Origin: Pseudomonadota bacterium
GTDB taxonomy: Bacteria > Pseudomonadota > Gammaproteobacteria > UBA12402
NCBI GenBank assembly: GCA_039190005.1
Contig: JBCCYM010000004.1
Location: 1-60,622, forward strand
Direction: 5' to 3'
Length of the DNA: 60,622 nt
Shown here: positions 12,450 through 55,879 of the stretch, one piece after another
Layout: each line of letters starts with the position of its first letter
How positions within the stretch are numbered: position 1 is the first letter of the stretch
Made by a program: the position numbers and the translations under genes
The notes under the pieces: generated by a model
Databases searched by the model: none
Told to the model about the DNA's origin: nothing
What the model saw: the letters and a program-made list of their open reading frames with translations, nothing else

Positions 12450-12558
12450 GGGGTCAAATTAGCCGAGCCTCAGCACACAATACCAAAGATACCGTTGCTT
12501 CCTTCCGGACCTGGCGGGGTTTTCAATGAATTGTTGCAAGGAGACCAATCTGACCACC
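12450..12558 (-). ncRNA. ffs: Signal recognition particle 4.5S RNA
   Basis: Conserved CCAGGTCCGGAAGGAAGCA core; pairing ends GGTCAGATTGG/CTAATTTGACC; conserved position upstream of dnaX. Confidence 0.92.
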
Positions 12559-12780: not shown

Positions 12781-13776
12781 TTAATCATTAAGATCTTTAG
12801 GCGGATTGGTATGAAAAATATTTTCTTCAGATACACCATGCTGCGCGGCGATACTGCGTAATTTCCTTAGCGCTTGCATTTGCCGTTGGCGGATACTTTC
12901 ACGGGTCATGTTAAAATGTCGAGAAATTTCTTCCAAGGTTTGTTTATCTTTGCCGTTAAGACCATAACGGTACGCTAAAATATGCTGATCTTTTTCATCC
13001 AGCTTATCAATCCATTGACTCAAACTATTCATTAAATCATCATTAAGCAATTCATTTTCTGGATTATCATCCTCACCTTCAGTTAACACATCCACCAGTC
13101 TTTGATTATTTGTTTCGCCCATAGTCTGATCGGTGGAAACGGCAACCTCATTATAAGAAATGATTTTTTTCACCTCATCTAAAGGTTTATCCAGTTTGGC
13201 GGCAATTTCTTCAGGCGAAGCTTCTTTCCCTAGCTCTTTTCTAATTTGTTTACCGGCACGCAAATAAATATTCAATTCTTTAATCACATGAATCGGTAAA
13301 CGTACCGTGCGTGACTGATTCATAATAGCCCGCTCAATATTCTGACGTATCCACCAAGTCGCGTACGTTGAAAAACGAAAACCACGCTCCGGATCAAACT
13401 TCTCTATCGCGTGCATCAAACCTAAATTACCTTCGGCAATCAAATCAAGAAATTCCATGCCACGATTAATATAACTACGCGCGATTTTCACAACCAAGCG
13501 CAGATTGCGTTCAATCATTTTATGCCGTGCTTCTTCGTCGCCTTTAACAGCCAAACGGCTGACGGCTAACTCTTCTTCAACACTTAGCAATGGCGTATAA
13601 CCTATCTCACGCAGATACATTCTTGTCGCGTCAAAATCTTCCGTTTTATCCGGAACCTTACGCTCAAAACGATTATCACTACTCTGTTCATCTGCCTCAG
13701 CAACGTCAACATCATTCTGATCTATTATTGGATCTTCTAGTATCATTTCATCTTTATCTTTAGCCATAGCAATCAA
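12781..13776 (-). CDS. rpoS: RNA polymerase sigma factor RpoS (likely ATG start 13767)
   Basis: [64 protein letters not shown]; downstream of surE. Confidence 0.9.
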
Positions 13777-13777
13777 C

Positions 13778-14524
13778 CTACTTTATTGTATCGATCCAGT
13801 CATGCAAACGATCAAAACCATCATAATCGGTCCAATCCATGCGGAAAGGTGTCACCGAAACTCTATTACTGCGCACCGCGAAAAAATCACTGCCCTCATT
13901 GATATCACGGGCATCACCCGGCAAACCGATCCAGTATAGCTCGCCACCTCGAGGATCTTCTACTTTAATAGTAGGTTCAGAAGCATGTCGACGACCAAAA
14001 TAAGTCACTTCAATACCTTCTATTTTACTTAAAGGCAAATCCGGCACATTAATATTAAGAATTGTATCGCTAGGCAGTGGTTTTTCACGCATTAAGGTGA
14101 CCATCTCTTTGACGATGGCCGCCGCCGCCTGATAATGTTCAGCGGGACTGCCTAAAGAAACCGCCAAAGCCGGAAATCCCAAATAACGCCCTTCCATCGC
14201 GCCGGCAACAGTGCCGGAATACATAATATCATCACCTAAATTATAGCCTCGGTTGATCCCTGAAATCACCATATCCGGTTGCACGTCCAAGGCGCCGGTA
14301 AGCGCGAGATGCACGCAATCGGTTGGCGTGCCGTTGACCATATAATGTGAATCCGCCATTTGAGTAATACGCAGCGGTCGATCCAATGTCAATGAGTTGC
14401 TGGCGCCACTGCAGTTACGATCCGGCGCGATCACGGTGATATCGACAATGTCAGCTAATACTTCAGCCAAACATTGAATGCCCGGTGCCGTATAACCATC
14501 ATCATTACTTAGTAATATTTTCAT
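13778..14524 (-). CDS. surE: 5'/3'-nucleotidase SurE
   Basis: [42 protein letters not shown]. Confidence 0.97.
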
Positions 14525-14547
14525 TAGTTTTTTTATCTCTTATTCCC

Positions 14548-14601
14548 CGTCATTCCTGTGCCCCTTCGACTAGCTCAGGGACCACCTGTGCTAGAATGAC
14601 G
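14548..14601. repeat. Hybrid REP: one CCCTTCGA..CTCAGGGACC unit inside CGTCATTCC..GAATGACG arms
   Basis: CGTCATTCCTGTGC-CCCTTCGACTAGCTCAGGGACCA-CCTGTGCTAGAATGACG. Confidence 0.8.
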
Positions 14602-14666
14602 AGTGCTCTCTATATTGTATAATATTTAAATTTCTTTTGGAACAGTTATAATTATACTAACAAATA

Positions 14667-15200
14667 TCATTTAAAATCAAACTGTCGAAGTACAATATCA
14701 AACGCCTGTTTAAACCAAGGTGTATAATTATCCGGCATGCGCGCGTAATCAGCGTTAATCTGTTCCGGTCTTAGCCAAGCATAATCGGCAACTTCTTTGT
14801 CGTTAACCACAAATTTTTGTGGTCGCCAAAAACCCAATAAGACATGATCTATCTCATTTTCAGTCAAACCATCATCAAAATGGGCGATATAATGAAAAAC
14901 ACCAATCGCTTGTAAATCAACATCGGCTATGCCCATCTCTTCATACAAACGACGCTGACCAGCCGCAATAATAGTTTCACCCGGTCGCGGATGACTACAA
15001 CAGGTATTGGTCCATAATCCGCCACAATGATATTTATCCCATTGGCGTTGTTGCAATAACAGCCGTAACGATTGCCGCGTATCATCAGCAATAAAAATAG
15101 AAAAAGCGCGATGTCGCAAACCATGCTGATGCGCTTTCAGTTTTTCTTCAGTGCCAATTAGCTGATCCTGATCATCGACTAAAATAACTTGTTCTGTCAT
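14667..15200 (-). CDS. idi: Isopentenyl-diphosphate delta-isomerase type 1
   Basis: LRHRAFSIF, LLQQR, WTNTCCSHP, EEMG, ENEIDHV, YTPWF. Confidence 0.95.
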   Translation of the reverse strand: MTEQVILVDDQDQLIGTEEKLKAHQHGLRHRAFSIFIADDTRQSLRLLLQQRQWDKYHCGGLWTNTCCSHPRPGETIIAAGQRRLYEEMGIADVDLQAIGVFHYIAHFDDGLTENEIDHVLLGFWRPQKFVVNDKEVADYAWLRPEQINADYARMPDNYTPWFKQAFDIVLRQFDFK

Positions 15201-16204
15201 AACAATTGCTCTCGATAAGGTTGTACAATTTCTAAATTTGGAAAATGAGTTTGTACGGCGTGTTTGTCTTCTTCTAAAAATAATAATTTCAGATTAGGGC
15301 CAGCATCTTGAGTAAAAAACAACGACAAGCCTTGATCACGCAACTGCCAGATTTTTTTCATCGCGTTAATTGTTTCAGCACAACTATACATAATCGATGG
15401 CGCTGCCGTCAGCATACACGCGTGCATGGCTAGCGCGTTACGCTCCGCTGTCCGCCCTAATAACTTAAAATCACGCGCGGCAATGGCCTGCCGCGTCAAC
15501 TTGAGATCATTATCTACTCTAGCTGGCCATGCCTGATAGAATTCACTTGCCATCGTTAAGCGCATGGCTTTGCCACTGCTCATTTTTTTCGGCTCGGTTT
15601 TAAATAACAATAAACCGACACATAAATCTGACCATAATGGCGCCACAGGTTGGGCGTAACAATCCATACCATCTTCACGTTCACCACACTGCCATAACAC
15701 AAAACGATGCCAAAATGAACGGCTGGCACTACCACTGCCAAGACGCGCTAAAATAGACAATGCCCTATCCGATAACTGCCAAGCAAAAAATTGATTCAAT
15801 GCCTTTACTAAGGCGGCAAAGCCACAAGCGGACGATGCCAAACCCGCGGCTATCGGCACAGTACTATGACTGTTCACCCGAAAAAAAACGTTTTTATCGC
15901 CACGAAAAAGATCAAGATAAGCACACAAGCGTCGCGCTAAACCGGTATCAGAGGCAATGACTTGGTCATTGATAATGATTTCATCACAGTTACCGGACGC
16001 TAAACTGATCCGCGTTGTCGCTCCGCGCTTGCCTAGCGATACCGATAAGCTCGAGGTGACTGGCAAATGCAAGCCTTCATTACGCTTACCCCAATATTTA
16101 ACCAAAGCGATATTACTTGGCGCGAATGCTGTCGCGCTTTCCATAGCCGGTTGAGTATTTTTATTGGCTAATAGCGTTCGCACAATGCTTTGTTTGTCTG
16201 TCAT
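15197..16204 (-). CDS. mvaD: Diphosphomevalonate decarboxylase
   Basis: APSNIALVKYWGKR, AAGLASSACGFAAL, ARLGSGSASRS, FTQDAGPNLKL. Confidence 0.95.
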   Translation of the reverse strand: MTDKQSIVRTLLANKNTQPAMESATAFAPSNIALVKYWGKRNEGLHLPVTSSLSVSLGKRGATTRISLASGNCDEIIINDQVIASDTGLARRLCAYLDLFRGDKNVFFRVNSHSTVPIAAGLASSACGFAALVKALNQFFAWQLSDRALSILARLGSGSASRSFWHRFVLWQCGEREDGMDCYAQPVAPLWSDLCVGLLLFKTEPKKMSSGKAMRLTMASEFYQAWPARVDNDLKLTRQAIAARDFKLLGRTAERNALAMHACMLTAAPSIMYSCAETINAMKKIWQLRDQGLSLFFTQDAGPNLKLLFLEEDKHAVQTHFPNLEIVQPYREQLL

Positions 16205-17193
16205 AGATAACGCACACCTTGTTTTTCTACACGCACGTCAATTTGCCTCACGCCCGCGTTTTTTTGTGCTGTATTGACGGGAAAATAATTGTCCGGCAAT
16301 TTTCCCAAAGTAATAAAACAATCACCCAAGCCGGCGCCAGAAAGTTTAGCGGCTAGTATACCCGGCATTTGACGCAATTGTAATAACAAACCATCAAGCC
16401 AAGCGTTACTCAGTGCCAGCTTTTCCATTAAAGCTTGTTGCGCGCCCATCTGCTCAGCTAAACTGTGCCAATCTCGCGCTATCATTGCTGACCAGGCTTT
16501 TTCAACCAGCGTCGCAATTTGCGTATACATGGCATCATAGCGTTCAGGATATTTTTTTGCCTCATCCGCCAGTTTTTTTACCACATCCGCTGTCGGCGTT
16601 TTACTACCGGAATACAATAAACTCAGTTCTGGAAAATGTTCCGCTTGTTTAATTGATAATGACCGCGGATGATAATAAATCATACCACCAAACACACTGG
16701 CAGCAACATCCGCGCCCGAACCCATACCCTGCACCCGTCGCACCACTGTTCTCGCTTGTTCTAATAAGGCAATGGGCGTGATTGTTCTAGCCAATAAGCG
16801 ATTGATTGCCGCCATCATCGCGACAGTGACCGCCGCCGATGAACCCAGCCCAAGATTATGGGCAAATTCTGTGCGAATACTTAGATCAAATCCATTACTA
16901 AGCTGCGCTTTAAAAAATTCAATTGACGCTAACACAAAAGAAAATGGCGCGGCAATGCTTATGGTATCGAGATCGGTATGATACTTACCCAGTTGATCTG
17001 AATAAATATTTATTTCTCTGTCTTTACGCGGTGATAATTCAACATTGATCACACAATCAAGCGCGCAGACAATCGCCGGATGGCCATAGACAACCGCGTG
17101 TTCACCCATGAGCATGGCACTACCCGGTGCCGATGTTTTAATGACTGGCTCAGGCAACACGCAACCCTTGATGTTCAGCGATAACCGGCTCAA
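16201..17193 (-). CDS. GHMP kinase, probable phosphomevalonate kinase (true start probably near 17157-17160)
   Basis: SAPGSAMLMGEHAV, GLGSSAA, GSGADVAASVFGG, KLSGAGLGDC; position between mvk and mvaD. Confidence 0.8.
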   Translation of the reverse strand: MSRLSLNIKGCVLPEPVIKTSAPGSAMLMGEHAVVYGHPAIVCALDCVINVELSPRKDREINIYSDQLGKYHTDLDTISIAAPFSFVLASIEFFKAQLSNGFDLSIRTEFAHNLGLGSSAAVTVAMMAAINRLLARTITPIALLEQARTVVRRVQGMGSGADVAASVFGGMIYYHPRSLSIKQAEHFPELSLLYSGSKTPTADVVKKLADEAKKYPERYDAMYTQIATLVEKAWSAMIARDWHSLAEQMGAQQALMEKLALSNAWLDGLLLQLRQMPGILAAKLSGAGLGDCFITLGKLPDNYFPVNTAQKNAGVRQIDVRVEKQGVRYL

Positions 17194-19381
17194 CAGTATA
17201 ATGGTAATGACGACAGACTGGCTTTATGTGATCAAGCTGATCAGTAATCACTAATACCATACCGGCATTATCGCCAACAACACTACCAGCGCCACATATC
17301 TTAGCAGCGGCACCGTGTTGCTCTAAATCCTGAATAAATTGTTGCACTTTTTGTGGCACCACCTCAATACGACAAAGCAGGCGGTGATTATGACGAATGA
17401 TCGATTGAATTTTATCAACATCATCTGAAGCCAAAAGCTGATCCAAGGCGTTGGTTGTCGCGGCAAATTCATTCCAAATAGCATCTTCAGCAAAATACTG
17501 TCTGACATGACTGACACTCTCACCGGTTGATGATCGCGGTTTGCCAGTATTCACCAAAAACATCGGCACTCGCGGTATTGGTCGCTGTTCAATGTCGCCG
17601 CCATTCACATACACACAACCGCCATAAAGTGATACGTTTAAATCAATCCCACTGCTGTTACCATGCTGTAGATTTTCAATTTCATGGCTCATTTTCAAAT
17701 ACATGTCACTATCAACATGATGACCATAATATTCATTGATTGCTTTTAACACACTTAAAGACACGGCCGCCGATGAACCCATGCCACAACCGACAGGAAT
17801 ATTCGATTGTGTCGACACTTTGATACCCTGTGGCGGCTGTTGTAAATGCGCCATTAAATGCGCTGTGGCAAACTGAACTAATTGCACCGGTTGTTTGATC
17901 ACATCTTGAATGGTACATTCCTGATTTAAAAATTTATGGTACTTACGTTTTATACTCGATTTTAAATCTTTTAAAGCTTGTTTGGTTAAAGACTTGTGGT
18001 AGTGTAAATCAAGCAAATCGAAATCAACCTTATCATTCTCACTATCAGCGACAACCGTTGTTTCAGCGTAACGATTCACCGCCAAAGCAATTGCCGGCTT
18101 ACCGTAAACAACCGCGTGCTCACCGGATAAAATGATTTTACCAGGAGAAATCGCCCGACTCAGTGCCGGTGTCGTGATAGGGACAGGACGCGACGCATCT
18201 GCTGCACTGCTGTCATTGCGTTCATAAAGCCGTTTGTGATTTTCAATCCCCGCCAAACGGTAGTTACCGGTATTGTATTGTGGCAACTGAAAAGCACTGC
18301 CATCACGCGGTAATTGACTGGTGAAAAATTTTTCATAGTCTTCAATGCTCAATGCCTGACGCTGCTCAATCAACTGTTGATGATAAGACTTATCCAGATA
18401 TTGCTGATAACCTGCTTGTATCACACCGCTAAAATATTCCGCCACGCAACCGGAACCATAGCTGTATAAGCCGATACGTTGATGACTTAAATCATCCGCA
18501 CTGTTTTCCAATAGTGAAATCAAGCCAATATATAACGACGCGGTATACGTGTTGCCAATCTCCCGACCATAACGCAAACCATCAGCTGTTTGCGCGGCGA
18601 CTTGTTGATCATCCAACGGCAATGATTCATAGCGCGCCAATTCTTTATGCGCTTTCTCAACCAAACGCGGCACCGGCGCGTGATAAAGAAACCCACTAAA
18701 ATCATTAAAACCATGTCCGGAATTTTCCTTATAATGTTGCCATGATTGCTTGAGTGCCTGTAAATACATTTTCGCTGAATATTTTCCTTCCACCAATGCC
18801 TCGCGGCGGTAATTTGGTCGCCAGAAATCCATAATGTCATTGGTATACAACCCATAATGCGGTTCTATCGCCAGTAATCTTGGTTGCGCGCTGATTAACA
18901 TGGCAACCGCGCCACCACCTTGTGACGGTTCACCGGAACTGCATAAGCCGTAACGGGCAATATCCGCGGCAATAATCAAAACATTTTTATCCGGACGACG
19001 CTGCACCATCGCGCAGGCCATCTGCAAAGCTTGTGTGGCGCTATAACAGGCTTGTTTCAGTTCAACAACACGACAGCGTTGCGGCAAATTGAGCAGACCA
19101 TGCACATAAATACCCGCTGATTTTGATTGATCGATACCACTCTCAGTAGCAAATAATAGCGTATCAATACTGTCACAATCGACATCGCGCAATAGTCGTT
19201 CGGCGGCATTCGCCGCCATGGTGACCACATCTTCATCCGGCGCCGGCACCGACATACGATGCTGCCCCAAACCAATAAGAAATTTATCCGGATTAACACC
19301 GCGATGCGCTGCCAGCATTGATAAACTCAAAACATAATGTGGGGTATAAAAACCGATTTTATCAATACCAACTGTCGTCAT
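17150..19381 (-). CDS. Fused HMG-CoA synthase (N-terminal) and mevalonate kinase (C-terminal)
   Basis: HMGS: ATESGIDQSK, ELKQACYSAT (catalytic Cys), DFWRP, GNTYTASLY, SYGSG. Low-complexity linker DSSAADASRPVPITTP. MVK: PGKIILSGEHAVVYG, PVGCGMGSSAA, KICGAG. One uninterrupted ORF. Confidence 0.9.
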   Translation of the reverse strand: MTTVGIDKIGFYTPHYVLSLSMLAAHRGVNPDKFLIGLGQHRMSVPAPDEDVVTMAANAAERLLRDVDCDSIDTLLFATESGIDQSKSAGIYVHGLLNLPQRCRVVELKQACYSATQALQMACAMVQRRPDKNVLIIAADIARYGLCSSGEPSQGGGAVAMLISAQPRLLAIEPHYGLYTNDIMDFWRPNYRREALVEGKYSAKMYLQALKQSWQHYKENSGHGFNDFSGFLYHAPVPRLVEKAHKELARYESLPLDDQQVAAQTADGLRYGREIGNTYTASLYIGLISLLENSADDLSHQRIGLYSYGSGCVAEYFSGVIQAGYQQYLDKSYHQQLIEQRQALSIEDYEKFFTSQLPRDGSAFQLPQYNTGNYRLAGIENHKRLYERNDSSAADASRPVPITTPALSRAISPGKIILSGEHAVVYGKPAIALAVNRYAETTVVADSENDKVDFDLLDLHYHKSLTKQALKDLKSSIKRKYHKFLNQECTIQDVIKQPVQLVQFATAHLMAHLQQPPQGIKVSTQSNIPVGCGMGSSAAVSLSVLKAINEYYGHHVDSDMYLKMSHEIENLQHGNSSGIDLNVSLYGGCVYVNGGDIEQRPIPRVPMFLVNTGKPRSSTGESVSHVRQYFAEDAIWNEFAATTNALDQLLASDDVDKIQSIIRHNHRLLCRIEVVPQKVQQFIQDLEQHGAAAKICGAGSVVGDNAGMVLVITDQLDHIKPVCRHYHYTVEPVIAEHQGLRVA

Positions 19382-19382
19382 A

Positions 19383-20423
19383 TTACCTGTTCCGACGTTC
19401 AAATAACTGATGCGCTCGCATCAACTCATCAGGATTTGTTAAGGCGGCTAATAGAGATAACTCGCCACATAATACCGTGGCCGCAATAATTTCAGCCAAG
19501 CGCCGCGCGTTTAAACCTGGCTCGGTTGATGCTAGACAACCTAACTGTTCAAGATTATCTTTAACAAACCCAATCATTTTACCATGACCGACTGTCCCGA
19601 CAATAAGATTGGGAATTGTGACTGAAAAATAGAGACCTTGATCATCACATTGGGCGTGAGTAATCCCCTGTGAGCCTTCAACAATATTGGCGCCATCCTG
19701 ACCCGTCGCTAAATACATCGCCAACAATATATTAGCAAAATGCGCGTTCGCACTTTGAAGACTACCAGCCGCTATAGAACCAATTAAATTCTTTTTGATG
19801 TGCAAGTCAACCAAGCGCGCCGGCGTTGTATTCAACACTTGCTGACAAATATTCTCGGAGATATTGATTTCAGCAATCATATATTTACCGCGACCGAGTA
19901 TCGCGTTAACCGCGCTCACTTTTTTATCAACACAGTAATTACCACTGATAGAAACATAACGTAAATCAGCAAATACCGACAGCAAATAATTCTGAATGTG
20001 TTCGGCGGCAAATGTCACCATATTGTGACCGGAGGCGTCACCGGTAGTAAATGATAAACGCAGATAAATTGTTTTGCCGATAATGTGATGCTGTATGGCT
20101 TGTAACTTAGCGAATCGACTGCCTTGACTGACAATACCCGCTAACTTATCATAATGATTCACTTCGATGGATCGCGCGATTTCAACCGCTTGCTTAGCCG
20201 ATGGCGCTTCTAAGCTAATTGAACGCGTCATACAGTCACTGACCATGCTGACCGCAATTCCTCCGGCTAAACAAGAAACCTTGGCGCCACGTGCCGTTGA
20301 CGGCCAGAGTGTGGTTTCATAAGTCGCTAAAGGCACGTTAATTTGTTCGTCGTCAATGATCTCGGACCGTACTCTTACCGGGCCGATAAACCGCATCGGA
20401 ATGGCAGCGACTTGATTATTCAT
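19383..20423 (-). CDS. hmgR: HMG-CoA reductase, short class I bacterial type
   Basis: VPLATYE, TGDASGHNM, SGNYCVDKK, ATGQD, GELSLLA and LMRAH motifs. Confidence 0.92.
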   Translation of the reverse strand: MNNQVAAIPMRFIGPVRVRSEIIDDEQINVPLATYETTLWPSTARGAKVSCLAGGIAVSMVSDCMTRSISLEAPSAKQAVEIARSIEVNHYDKLAGIVSQGSRFAKLQAIQHHIIGKTIYLRLSFTTGDASGHNMVTFAAEHIQNYLLSVFADLRYVSISGNYCVDKKVSAVNAILGRGKYMIAEINISENICQQVLNTTPARLVDLHIKKNLIGSIAAGSLQSANAHFANILLAMYLATGQDGANIVEGSQGITHAQCDDQGLYFSVTIPNLIVGTVGHGKMIGFVKDNLEQLGCLASTEPGLNARRLAEIIAATVLCGELSLLAALTNPDELMRAHQLFERRNR

Positions 20424-20482
20424 GATAGGCTAAAATTATTCGATATAACTAGCAGTAGTATATCATGAAATCGGCATAAAAG

Positions 20483-20797
20483 CTAGGTGGCGCTAGTGTC
20501 TGATTTTGCCAATTTACTGGGGGCGACAAACTGATAATAGGTTTCATTATCTTTTATCATGCCCAATTTCTGACGCGCCAAGGATTCCATGGCGGATTTG
20601 TTAGATTTTAATGCATCAATTTCGCGCGCGAGTGTTTGATTACGTTCGCTTAAACGCGCGTTGATTTGTGTCTGCCGGCTAATTTGATGTTTAAGTTGTA
20701 AGGTATGGGTCATGCCATTGGCGGAAAACCAAAGCTTATACTGAAGCAGTCCAAACAGCAGTACAAAAACAAGCAGTAGCGATTTCAACATTGACAT
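20483..20797 (-). CDS. ftsB: Cell division protein FtsB
   Basis: LQYKLWFSANG after a TM helix, coiled coil, ESLARQKLGMIKDNETYYQ. Confidence 0.9.
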   Translation of the reverse strand: MSMLKSLLLVFVLLFGLLQYKLWFSANGMTHTLQLKHQISRQTQINARLSERNQTLAREIDALKSNKSAMESLARQKLGMIKDNETYYQFVAPSKLAKSDTSAT

Positions 20798-20917
20798 TAC
20801 TTATTACCTTAACACGATAAGTTAGTAGAAATAGTTTACAGTTTTTCTCGCGAATGTCACCTTAGTTTTTGAAAAAATTGATATTTTTTATCAAAATAGT
20901 ATTTTAATAATTATAAA

Positions 20918-20977: not shown

Positions 20978-22426
20978 TTATAGCTGATTTTGGAAATCTT
21001 TAGCTGCAAAAATCCTACTATTTTGTATGATATAATAACGCGTTACAGCAATCTCTTTAAGAAAATCACTGTTATGAGAAATCACAAACATAGCGCCAGG
21101 ATAATGCTTTAACACTTGGACAACATGCGCGTAGGTCTCTAAATCCAAATTATTCGTTACCTCATCCAAAATAAGCAATTTCGGCGTCACTGCCGCGATT
21201 TGCGCCAAGCTCAGTCGCGCTTTTTCACCACCGGATAATGTTGCCACGTTGGCATTAATTTCTTCATTTTTACGAAAAAGAAAATCATTCAAATGTCGGC
21301 GCGCTTCAATGGCTGACCACAGCGGCATGCTTTCAGCAATCGTATCAAAGACAGTCATTTCCTCATCAAGTGTTTTATAGTGCTGGTCAAGATAAGCGAT
21401 ATCATTCAATTTAGGCACTACCCAGTGTCCTGTTTTTTTGACCGCGGCACACGATAAGATTGCTTTAATTAAGGTTGATTTACCACTGCCATTATTGCCA
21501 CAAATCGCGATGCGATCTTGAGCGTTTACTGATAGATTAATATCGCTTAGCACCACATGATTATCATAAGCAACACTGGCATCGCTAATTGCCACAAGCT
21601 GAGCATTGCTTACAGCCCCCTTGATCGAAAATTTAGGCACGATAACTTCCGCTAATTTTAAATCGGCAAGCTGCTGTCGCGCCATGGTTTTCTTATCATC
21701 AATCGCCGCTTTTTTTCGTCCTGATGTCATTTCTGCGCGTGTTGCTTTAGCAAAGCTAGTAACCATTGCCCATTTGCGATTAATAATATTTTTTCTTCCT
21801 TTCTTACGACTATTAGCCGCGCGTTTTTGTTCACGCATCAACATCTCATGCGTTTGTTTTTTTTGTTTATTGAGCTGCGCGATTGTTTTTTCTATCGCCG
21901 CGCGCTGACGTCTTTGCTCGACAACATAGTCATCATAATTTCCTGAGAAAACATGAATCTCACCATCGTCAATATGCCATAAACTGTCAACACAACGACG
22001 CAGCAGTTCCACATCATGAGAGACAACAATTAAACTACCATGATAGGCCTTTAACATCCGCATCAGTGATTGACGATTATGGTAATCAAGATGATTAGTC
22101 GGTTCATCCAGTAATAATAGATTAGGATTGCAACTTAATGCTTCAGTCAATTTTTTATTAAACCGTTCACCGCCACTGGCATTTAACGGTGAATCAATAA
22201 CTTGCGGCACATAAGCGCAAATAACATCATCGGGAATCTGTACAGTGCCACTACTCGGTTCAATTTTGTCTTGCAAAATTTTTAATAATGTCGATTTGCC
22301 ACTGCCATTAGCGCCGATAATGGCGATACGATTACCGTAATGCAAACTGGCAGTGAAATCAGCAAAACAGATTTTATGCGGAAAAAAGAGGCTGACTTGA
22401 TCAATTTTTATAGGTTTATGCGTCAT
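20978..22426 (-). CDS. ABC-F family ribosome-associated ATPase, ARE-like (start taken at MTHKPI)
   Basis: Two NBDs (GANGSGKST/SGGE/LLDEPTN; GNNGSGKST/LSGGE/ILDEVTN), no TM segments, long basic linker. Confidence 0.88.
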   Translation of the reverse strand: MTHKPIKIDQVSLFFPHKICFADFTASLHYGNRIAIIGANGSGKSTLLKILQDKIEPSSGTVQIPDDVICAYVPQVIDSPLNASGGERFNKKLTEALSCNPNLLLLDEPTNHLDYHNRQSLMRMLKAYHGSLIVVSHDVELLRRCVDSLWHIDDGEIHVFSGNYDDYVVEQRRQRAAIEKTIAQLNKQKKQTHEMLMREQKRAANSRKKGRKNIINRKWAMVTSFAKATRAEMTSGRKKAAIDDKKTMARQQLADLKLAEVIVPKFSIKGAVSNAQLVAISDASVAYDNHVVLSDINLSVNAQDRIAICGNNGSGKSTLIKAILSCAAVKKTGHWVVPKLNDIAYLDQHYKTLDEEMTVFDTIAESMPLWSAIEARRHLNDFLFRKNEEINANVATLSGGEKARLSLAQIAAVTPKLLILDEVTNNLDLETYAHVVQVLKHYPGAMFVISHNSDFLKEIAVTRYYIIQNSRIFAAKDFQNQL

Positions 22427-22641
22427 GATAGTTATTAAACAATTAGGGGAAACATTTCCATTAAAACTTGTTAAAGTTCTAATGCCGACCTGCTTCTTCA
22501 CCGGAAGCAATGTTTAATAACAATTGTTCACGACAGCACGTACCTCTATAAAAAATTTGGACTTAACATTCAATTAAAGAATGCTATTAATATGCCATAT
22601 GCTAACAGCATTTTAATTAAAAATCAAATTACCGTCATTTT

Positions 22642-54919: not shown

Positions 54920-55879
54920 ATGTCAGAAATCATCATTTATAAAGCTAAAGACGGGCATATTGAGTTGAAAGTCAATTTGTCTGAAGAAACAGTTTGGCTT
55001 ACACAGAAGCAACTCTCTGATTTATTTGATAAAAACGTCAAAACCATTTCTGAACACATTAATAATATCTTTAATGAAGGTGAATTGGATGAAAGTTCAG
55101 CTATCCGGAATTTCCGGATAACTGCTCTAGATGGAAAGTTATATAATACTAAGCACTATAATTTAGATGCCATTATTTCTGTTGGTTATCGTGTTCACTC
55201 GAAACGTGGTACAGAATTTAGACAATGGGCGACTCAAATGTTAAAAGATCACCTTATTAGTGGCTATAGCATCAATGAAAAACGTTTGGCTGAACGTGGC
55301 ATCAAAGAACTACAACAATCCATCGAATTACTGCAAAAAACACTGACCCAGAATGAATTAGTCAATGACGTTGGCGTTGAGACAATTCAATTAATCATGA
55401 GCTACACCAAAACATGGCAGTTATTATTAGCTTACGATGAAGATGACTTAAAACTGCCGGAACCAAATAACGCATCTACCGCGGAACTAACATATGAATT
55501 CGCCATCAAAGCAATTGCGACATTGAAATGCGACCTTGCCGAAAGAAATGAAGCCACCGCCTTATTCGGCAATGAGCGCGAGCATGGTCTTCAAAGTATT
55601 CTAGGCAACATTAATCAAACCTTTGCCGGCGAAGTACTTTATAAAACAGCAGAAGAACGCGCGGCCCACTTGCTCTATTTTATTATAAAAGATCATCCTT
55701 TTACTGATGGTAATAAACGGATTGGCTGTCTTATTTTTTTACTTTATCTTAAACTTGAAAGTATTGTCATCAAACTAAATGATAACGGTCTAGTCGCGCT
55801 CGCCCTACTCATTGCTGAAAGCAATCCTGGTCAAAAAGATCTGATGATTCGTTTAATTGTTAATTTACTCATGGATTAA
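54920..55879 (+). CDS. RhuM-domain plus Fic/Doc-domain protein
   Basis: N-terminal ETVWLTQKQLSDLF..YNLDAIISVGYRVHS..FRQWA; C-terminal Fic motif HPFTDGNKRIG. Confidence 0.9.
   Translation: MSEIIIYKAKDGHIELKVNLSEETVWLTQKQLSDLFDKNVKTISEHINNIFNEGELDESSAIRNFRITALDGKLYNTKHYNLDAIISVGYRVHSKRGTEFRQWATQMLKDHLISGYSINEKRLAERGIKELQQSIELLQKTLTQNELVNDVGVETIQLIMSYTKTWQLLLAYDEDDLKLPEPNNASTAELTYEFAIKAIATLKCDLAERNEATALFGNEREHGLQSILGNINQTFAGEVLYKTAEERAAHLLYFIIKDHPFTDGNKRIGCLIFLLYLKLESIVIKLNDNGLVALALLIAESNPGQKDLMIRLIVNLLMD

Follow-up and report, generated by a model that had tools for sequence, protein, structure and literature searches.

The mevalonate route to isopentenyl diphosphate (IPP) in Coxiella and Legionella is a textbook pathway replacement, and the manner in which a scattered seven-gene pathway, that of methylerythritol phosphate (MEP), could be swapped for a foreign operon has remained unexplained. 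The question is raised in concrete form by a stretch of DNA of 60,622 nucleotides from a bacterium of the Pseudomonadota (GenBank assembly GCA_039190005.1, contig JBCCYM010000004.1, positions 1 to 60,622; this whole stretch is called the window below), in which an operon for the mevalonate pathway lies between the cell division gene ftsB and surE. The original prediction for this locus, made by a model from the letters of the DNA, held that the operon sits in the slot of the MEP genes ispD and ispF and had replaced them in situ. The slot is as predicted, and the reading of its history that we favour, with a probability of roughly 0.6 (i.e., likely, not proven), is an old, non-orthologous displacement of the MEP genes by the operon, in their own place.

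A mevalonate operon in the place of ispD, ispF and truD

In Escherichia coli the genes run ftsB-ispD-ispF-truD-surE(umpG)-pcm-nlpD-rpoS, and the flanking genes of this ftsB-rpoS block, their order and their strand are alike in the window. What differs is the cargo, which is ispD-ispF-truD in E. coli and six mevalonate genes in the window, where pcm and nlpD are also gone. The order eno-ftsB-ispD-ispF-truD..surE-pcm-nlpD(-rpoS) was found in three MEP-using gammaproteobacterial metagenome-assembled genomes (MAGs; L004, L008 and L011), which came from a search of genome contigs with SurE; among the matches of that search, all of them relatives of at most 58% identity, there was none with mevalonate genes. 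Because MEP users hold ispD, ispF and truD between ftsB and surE, the operon stands at the place of these three genes, and the predicted slot is thus borne out by the flanks in E. coli and in all three MAGs. The features of the region, all on the minus strand unless no strand is given, and the matches by which they were recognised are:

20978-22510 (-): ABC-F ATPase gene, 5' of ftsB; open reading frame (ORF) and family matches.
20483-20797 (-): ftsB, cell division, the upstream flank of the slot, 104 aa; PF04977 DivIC 74 bits, NF002058 97.6 bits (a little short of the cut-off, 101).
19383-20423 (-): 3-hydroxy-3-methylglutaryl-CoA (HMG-CoA) reductase (HMGR), class I (NADPH-type), short, 346 aa; PF00368 287 bits, TIGR00533 (NADPH/class I type).
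17150-19381 (-): fusion of HMG-CoA synthase (HMGS, residues ~1-393) and a GHMP kinase, K1 (~419-706), 743 aa; TIGR01835 495 bits, TIGR00549 186.5 bits.
16201-17160 with a GTG start, or to 17193 with a TTG start (-): second GHMP kinase, K2, 319-330 aa; TIGR00549 168.8 bits.
15197-16204 (-): diphosphomevalonate decarboxylase (MVD); TIGR01240 246 bits (cut-off 171).
14667-15200 (-): type 1 isopentenyl-diphosphate isomerase (IDI; Nudix); NF002995 150 bits (cut-off 127).
13778-14524 (-): surE, the downstream flank of the slot; NF001489 358 bits.
12781-13776 (-): rpoS, straight after surE; NF004207 407 bits.
12454-12550: signal recognition particle (SRP) RNA, the sole Rfam match, then dnaX.

The gene order from ftsB through the HMGR, HMGS-kinase, K2, MVD and IDI genes to surE and rpoS, all on one strand, is as originally claimed, judging by the ORFs and their family matches. 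Direct reading of the letters also upheld the coupled junctions of the operon: HMGR and HMGS meet at TAA-T-ATG, and there is one ATGA overlap at K2/MVD and one at MVD/IDI. The overlap of the fusion gene with K2 comes to 11 nt with the GTG start and 44 nt with the TTG start. A 750-aa version of the fusion with a TTG start gave no exact look-up match, and the ATG at 19381 is the called start. The spacers at the two ends of the operon are 59 nt (ftsB-HMGR) and 142 nt (idi-surE) in length, and a single nucleotide lies between the surE stop and the rpoS start; pcm and nlpD, which separate these two genes in E. coli and many other bacteria (nlpD alone in Legionella maceachernii), gave no tblastn match in the window.

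Searches for the missing genes were negative. With E. coli proteins as tblastn queries, ispD, ispF and truD had no match in the window, and no MEP homologue was found in the window or in the sequences flanking the initial set of 84 mevalonate loci and L176-L178. Relics of ispD, ispF or truD were sought in the spacers of the window, L083, L085, L089, L121 and L178, and gave nothing below E = 0.08, which is also what an old event predicts.

The operon in relatives and at other MEP-gene positions

Mevalonate operons were found in or beside the eno/ftsB..surE/rpoS block in several related loci, listed here with the identity of their fusion protein to that of the window and with their gene order, in which [MVA] stands for the mevalonate operon:

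L085: 59%; eno-x-ftsB-[MVA]-pagL-omp-rpoS.
L083/84: 61%; [MVA]-surE.
L121: 53%; [MVA]-surE-rpoS.
L089 and the P0013 contig: 48% and 53%; eno..[MVA]-ftsB-surE-nlpD-rpoS, ftsB overlapping surE.
L178 (HMGS named Coxiella sp. DG_40): HMGS part 58%, K1 part 43%; eno-ftsB-HMGR-HMGS-K1-K2.

Checked for ftsB-surE synteny, these relatives have the operon within the block in L083/84, L085, L121 and L178, and 5' of ftsB, between eno and ftsB, in L089 and the P0013 contig, where ftsB abuts or overlaps surE (L089:14941-15981) and the ispD-ispF-truD site is 'empty'. HAD and GT4 genes follow surE in L083, and small ORFs beside the L121 operon were set aside as spurious. In trees of concatenated HMGR, HMGS, K1, K2 and MVD, the window, L083, L085, L089 and L121 form one clade, with Shimodaira-Hasegawa-like approximate likelihood ratio (SH-aLRT) values of 97-99; this clade was named only after inspection of the operon tree, which is unrooted. 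L178 groups outside it, and an approximately unbiased (AU) test rejects joining the two (p = 8e-6).

Unexpectedly, other members of the operon family lie at the places of other MEP genes. The E. coli dxr block runs frr-dxr-uppS-cdsA-rseP-bamA-skp, and the order cdsA-dxr-rseP is presumably that of Pseudomonas, Vibrio and Bacillus; the order frr-uppS-cdsA-[MVA]-rseP-bamA(-skp) was found in L093 (7151-18486) and L177 (5874-21182). These two belong to a second clade of the family, in which the operon is followed by rseP-bamA-skp, as it also is in L113, L119, L129 and L176 (8881-21227), there as rseP-bamA-skp(-lpxD-fabZ). In Piscirickettsia litoralis (L179, 5720-20303) it is inverted between cdsA and bamA, with rseP missing there, and in L102 it abuts bamA. 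A TnpB/IS605 OrfB-like gene was seen just 5' of the dxr-block operon of L129 (3335-4177). The dxs place is represented by L164 (7770-13069), a single locus on a long branch, in which xseB-ispA is followed directly by HMGR-HMGS-K1-K2; since the E. coli order is xseB-ispA-dxs, the operon of L164 is at the place of dxs.

Because the same operon family fills the dxr and dxs places too, placement by chance is unlikely, with some 6 MEP places among a few thousand gene junctions (a rough estimate rather than a computed one); about 8 distinct contexts were seen, of which 3 are MEP-gene places. IDI is divergent in the largest clade, C (Aquicella type, 24 loci), and in 16 of these loci the MVD gene is convergent with xseB-ispA-nrdR-nusB-(thiL)-pgpA. 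This arrangement resembles E. coli pgpA-> <-yajO-dxs-ispA-xseB and is suggestive, but extra rearrangements would be needed, and it was not counted as a dxs slot. In clade E, a sister clade, the order is HMGR-IDI2-HMGS-K1-K2-MVD, in unrelated contexts, and in L143 (8956-9987) and L166 (4411-5478) the gene between HMGR and HMGS belongs to the FMN-dependent dehydrogenase family and is read as a type 2 IDI. Since its contexts are unrelated, and L166 carries a protein with a type IX secretion system (T9SS) sorting tail, clade E is probably not gammaproteobacterial; this suggests Bacteroidota-like hosts and cross-phylum exchange.

A probable displacement in place and its rivals

Under the displacement that we favour, an old ancestor of the clade would have received the operon within its ftsB-ispDF transcription unit, where it would have been read from the ftsB promoter; the MEP genes would then have been dispensable, and ispD-ispF with truD, and later pcm and nlpD, would have been deleted without trace. 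Like events would have placed sister operons at dxr (cdsA-[MVA]-rseP) and at dxs (xseB-ispA-[MVA]) in other lineages. A sigma-70-like match 5' of ftsB (GTGACA-16-TAAACT at 20833-20860, minus strand), a match to the consensus only, is a candidate promoter for ftsB together with the operon. As to the pathway replacement originally claimed, the placement and the shared arrangement stand in its favour, and a recent acquisition by this genome does not hold. The GC content of the operon, overall and at third codon positions (GC3), equals that of the housekeeping genes (nrdA, sucAB, dnaX and others), and because GC3 is ameliorated, relics are absent and the relatives are at most 61% identical, the state is an old, clade-wide one rather than a recent one. 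Nor is the tie of isoprenoid supply to a cell division gene new, for the linkage is ancestral, in the form of ftsB-ispDF.

Several points weigh against this account. Since ispD, ispF and truD have left no relic behind in any spacer, the physical replacement cannot be demonstrated directly, and what suggests co-transcription of the operon with ftsB is only the short spacer before HMGR, where a pattern scan shows neither a promoter-like nor a terminator-like signal. Just where the operon came in is uncertain because it lies 5' of ftsB in L089 and the P0013 contig; entry may have been at the eno|ftsB junction, with ispDF lost separately. In Legionella maceachernii, surE-nlpD-rpoS has neither ftsB nor, unlike the window, an operon upstream (a 127-aa gene upstream of its surE was considered as FtsB and rejected, as it looks like a lipoprotein). 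Finally, three of the four basal groups of the unrooted operon tree have the dxr-block context, so that the dxr-block position is possibly the older one and the ftsB position may be a later move.

That last point is the starting point of a rival history, in which the operon was acquired elsewhere (e.g., at the dxr place), the MEP genes decayed throughout the genome, and the vacated gap between ftsB and surE, as one of few neutral landing sites that a streamlined genome offers, later took in the operon, or ftsB moved. Apart from the basal groups, it draws on L089 and the P0013 contig, in which ftsB and surE adjoin and the operon precedes ftsB, on the further cargo that relatives have in the block (in L085 pagL and omp, in L083 the HAD and GT4 genes after surE) and on the missing relics. 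Nevertheless, we consider such a relocation unlikely, if well worth keeping in view: it needs at least 2 more chance landings in the places of MEP genes, at xseB-ispA and in the ftsB block; HMGR directly follows ftsB in two operon lineages whose joining is rejected by the AU test; and in an unrooted tree it is uncertain which groups are basal. Selection for co-expression with growth and envelope genes could, alternatively, draw any IPP-supplying genes to the same operons with no physical swap at all. The proximity of the operon positions to uppS and ispA, whose products consume IPP, could reflect such selection rather than replacement, which also counts against displacement, and the ftsB-ispDF linkage is kept in MEP users. 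However, ftsB itself uses no isoprenoid, the commonest arrangement (clade C) is convergent to such an operon and not inside it, and in L093, L177 and the window the operon coincides exactly with the gene boundaries of the MEP genes that are missing, all of which makes this kind of convergence improbable as the explanation.

Some Listeria and Streptomyces hold both pathways, and the MEP genes of the host of the window might similarly have been moved, not lost, with the mevalonate operon an added second route. The MEP pathway does persist in parts of the order, since Candidatus Berkiella (Coxiellaceae) has the MEP pathway only (PMC9803151). The cultured relatives C. burnetii and L. pneumophila, on the other hand, reportedly have no route to IPP other than the mevalonate one (PMC9803151), and with the lack of MEP homologues in the window and in the flanks searched, they leave the coexistence of both pathways with little probability. 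As the window derives from a metagenome, its junctions might also come from the chimeric assembly or binning of a mevalonate contig with an ftsB/surE contig, which is scarcely credible: an independent Logan contig of 8.2 kb (L001, 8177 nt), taken from the same run, covers ftsB to rpoS with identical gene content and order, which rules out a binning artefact at these junctions; they are seen again in several unrelated samples; and composition is uniform.

Enzymes, host and relation to known mevalonate systems

Biochemically the operon is ordinary, a new member of the Legionellales-type mevalonate operons, and from its family matches its function in the mevalonate pathway is nearly certain. HMGR is a short form that has no N-domain, which explains why its TIGR00533 score falls below the cut-off. 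It aligns over its full length with the solved HMG-CoA reductases 8ecg, 7uli, 6hr7 and 1dq8, and in the alignment to 8ecg all four catalytic residues, E, K, D and H, are matched (ATYE, VDKK, GQDGAN, LMRAH); its motif TTGDASGHNM corresponds to STGDAMGMNM in 8ecg, the best match. The best relatives in the PDB were 8ecg and 7uli (HMG-CoA reductase 1), 6hr7 (HMG-CoA reductase), and 1dq8 and 2q1l (further HMG-CoA reductases). All six PDB matches were HMG-CoA reductases, and no actinobacterial entry was recognisable among them, the original prediction having likened the enzyme to those of actinobacterial clusters. The HMGS domain far exceeds the TIGR01835 cut-off of 360, and its catalytic Cys112 and the GHMP motif PxGCGMGSSAA are unchanged across 20 aligned sequences. 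Homologues of the HMGS-kinase fusion number more than 650, the named ones including Piscirickettsia spp., Aquicella siphonis and many gammaproteobacterial MAGs.

The two kinases are less easily told apart. Both K1 and K2 pass the mevalonate-kinase (MVK) model TIGR00549 (cut-off 163), and neither reaches the cut-off of a phosphomevalonate kinase (PMK) model, so that no canonical PMK was recognised in either; K2 is, however, nearer to these models than K1, with 62.6 vs 25.6 bits for NF040957 (cut-off 500) and 78 vs 66 bits for TIGR01220 (cut-off 166). For these reasons K1 is most likely the mevalonate kinase, and K2 most likely a phosphomevalonate kinase that is a paralogue of mevalonate kinase. 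The enzyme activities predicted in this way would give a complete route: a thiolase coded elsewhere would supply acetoacetyl-CoA, the HMGS domain would form HMG-CoA and the class I HMGR reduce it to mevalonate, the fused K1 and then K2 would phosphorylate mevalonate and phosphomevalonate, MVD would yield IPP, and IDI would equilibrate IPP with dimethylallyl diphosphate (DMAPP). The absence of a thiolase gene from the operon had been noted correctly; tblastn with E. coli AtoB gave no match, neither in the window nor in the related mevalonate loci, and most bacterial mevalonate operons are defined without an acetoacetyl-CoA thiolase. In L151 (8814-10337) one 507-aa ORF spans the MVD and IDI matches and may be an MVD-IDI fusion.

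A pattern scan also found a promoter-like site for surE, TTGATT-18-TATAAT at 14651-14680. Between idi and surE, an inverted-repeat hairpin at 14546-14603 (minus strand) has an 11-bp stem, a folding z of -2.6 and no T run on either side. It had been taken for a repetitive extragenic palindromic (REP) element, an assignment that was not confirmed, as the hairpin is single and the window has no further copy of it even when up to 3 mismatches are allowed; a site of RNA stability or processing, or the remnant of a miniature inverted-repeat transposable element (MITE), are candidate roles. Far from the operon, at 54920-55879, a RhuM/Fic-domain gene stands amid housekeeping genes.

The stretch was found in one marine metagenome run (the runs listed are three, all marked 'DNA?' and none of RNA), and the best named relatives of its SurE are those of Legionella spp., at ~60% identity. 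By these matches the host is probably an uncultured marine Legionellales-like gammaproteobacterium. Among the related loci, one encodes a Legionella-type major outer membrane protein and another IcmW.

The mevalonate pathway of the Legionellales, gammaproteobacteria like the host of the window, is already known, and what is modestly novel here is the placement of the operon in ispD-ispF, dxr and dxs positions; in the papers searched, nothing was found on where these operons stand with respect to the slots of MEP genes. The gene set of the window, i.e., a short class I HMGR, an HMGS-kinase fusion, a second GHMP kinase, MVD and a Nudix IDI, is shared with Aquicella siphonis (L086) and Piscirickettsia litoralis (L179), whose fusion proteins are 48-50% identical to that of the window. 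Unlike that of the window, neither of their operons adjoins ftsB or surE. The Aquicella operon has a divergent IDI gene and an MVD gene convergent with ispA-nrdR-nusB-thiL-pgpA; other clade C loci show xseB 5' of ispA. In C. burnetii, the cluster CBU_0607-0610, which we take to lie beside bamA-skp, would be of the dxr-block type and not of the ftsB type. The mevalonate operons of Gram-positive cocci have a class II HMGR, a separate mvaS, a canonical Gram-positive PMK and a type 2 IDI, whereas in the window the HMGR is of class I, HMGS is fused to a kinase, the second kinase is MVK-like and the IDI is of type 1. Omelchenko et al. reportedly described, in Genome Biology in 2003, in-situ gene displacement in operons, in which an unrelated analogous gene takes the place of the resident. 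What would set the present case apart from displacement of that type is that a whole six-gene pathway is involved, that the genes displaced are the scattered ones of a seven-step pathway, and that three loci are concerned in different lineages. The operons of the Gram-positive cocci likewise replace the MEP pathway and are essential (Wilding et al. 2000, cited in PMC9997736), as is the mevalonate route in C. burnetii (PMC9997736). A 2026 review scores Legionella as having no PmvK and mostly no HmgS (PMC13001223). This scoring may, by analogy with the operon of the window, stem from two MVK-like kinases and a fused HMGS, and if Legionella carry the same operon family, standard models would miss both HMGS and PMK.

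Displacement in place can be carried one step further, to a generalisation that we offer tentatively and hold to be doubtful: that the mevalonate operons of Legionellales-like and Piscirickettsia-like gammaproteobacteria were captured repeatedly by MEP-gene operons, after ftsB, after cdsA and after xseB-ispA. Such in-place displacement would be 'self-licensing', in that a pathway operon with no promoter of its own could settle only where the polar damage it causes hits genes that it makes dispensable. If this were true, gene order alone would record at least three independent switches from the MEP to the mevalonate pathway. Gene order in any case gives a testable picture of the swap, in which the operon occupies, in different lineages, three loci that were formerly MEP positions, and knowing which lineages have no MEP pathway bears on the choice between inhibitors of the fosmidomycin type and those of the statin type.

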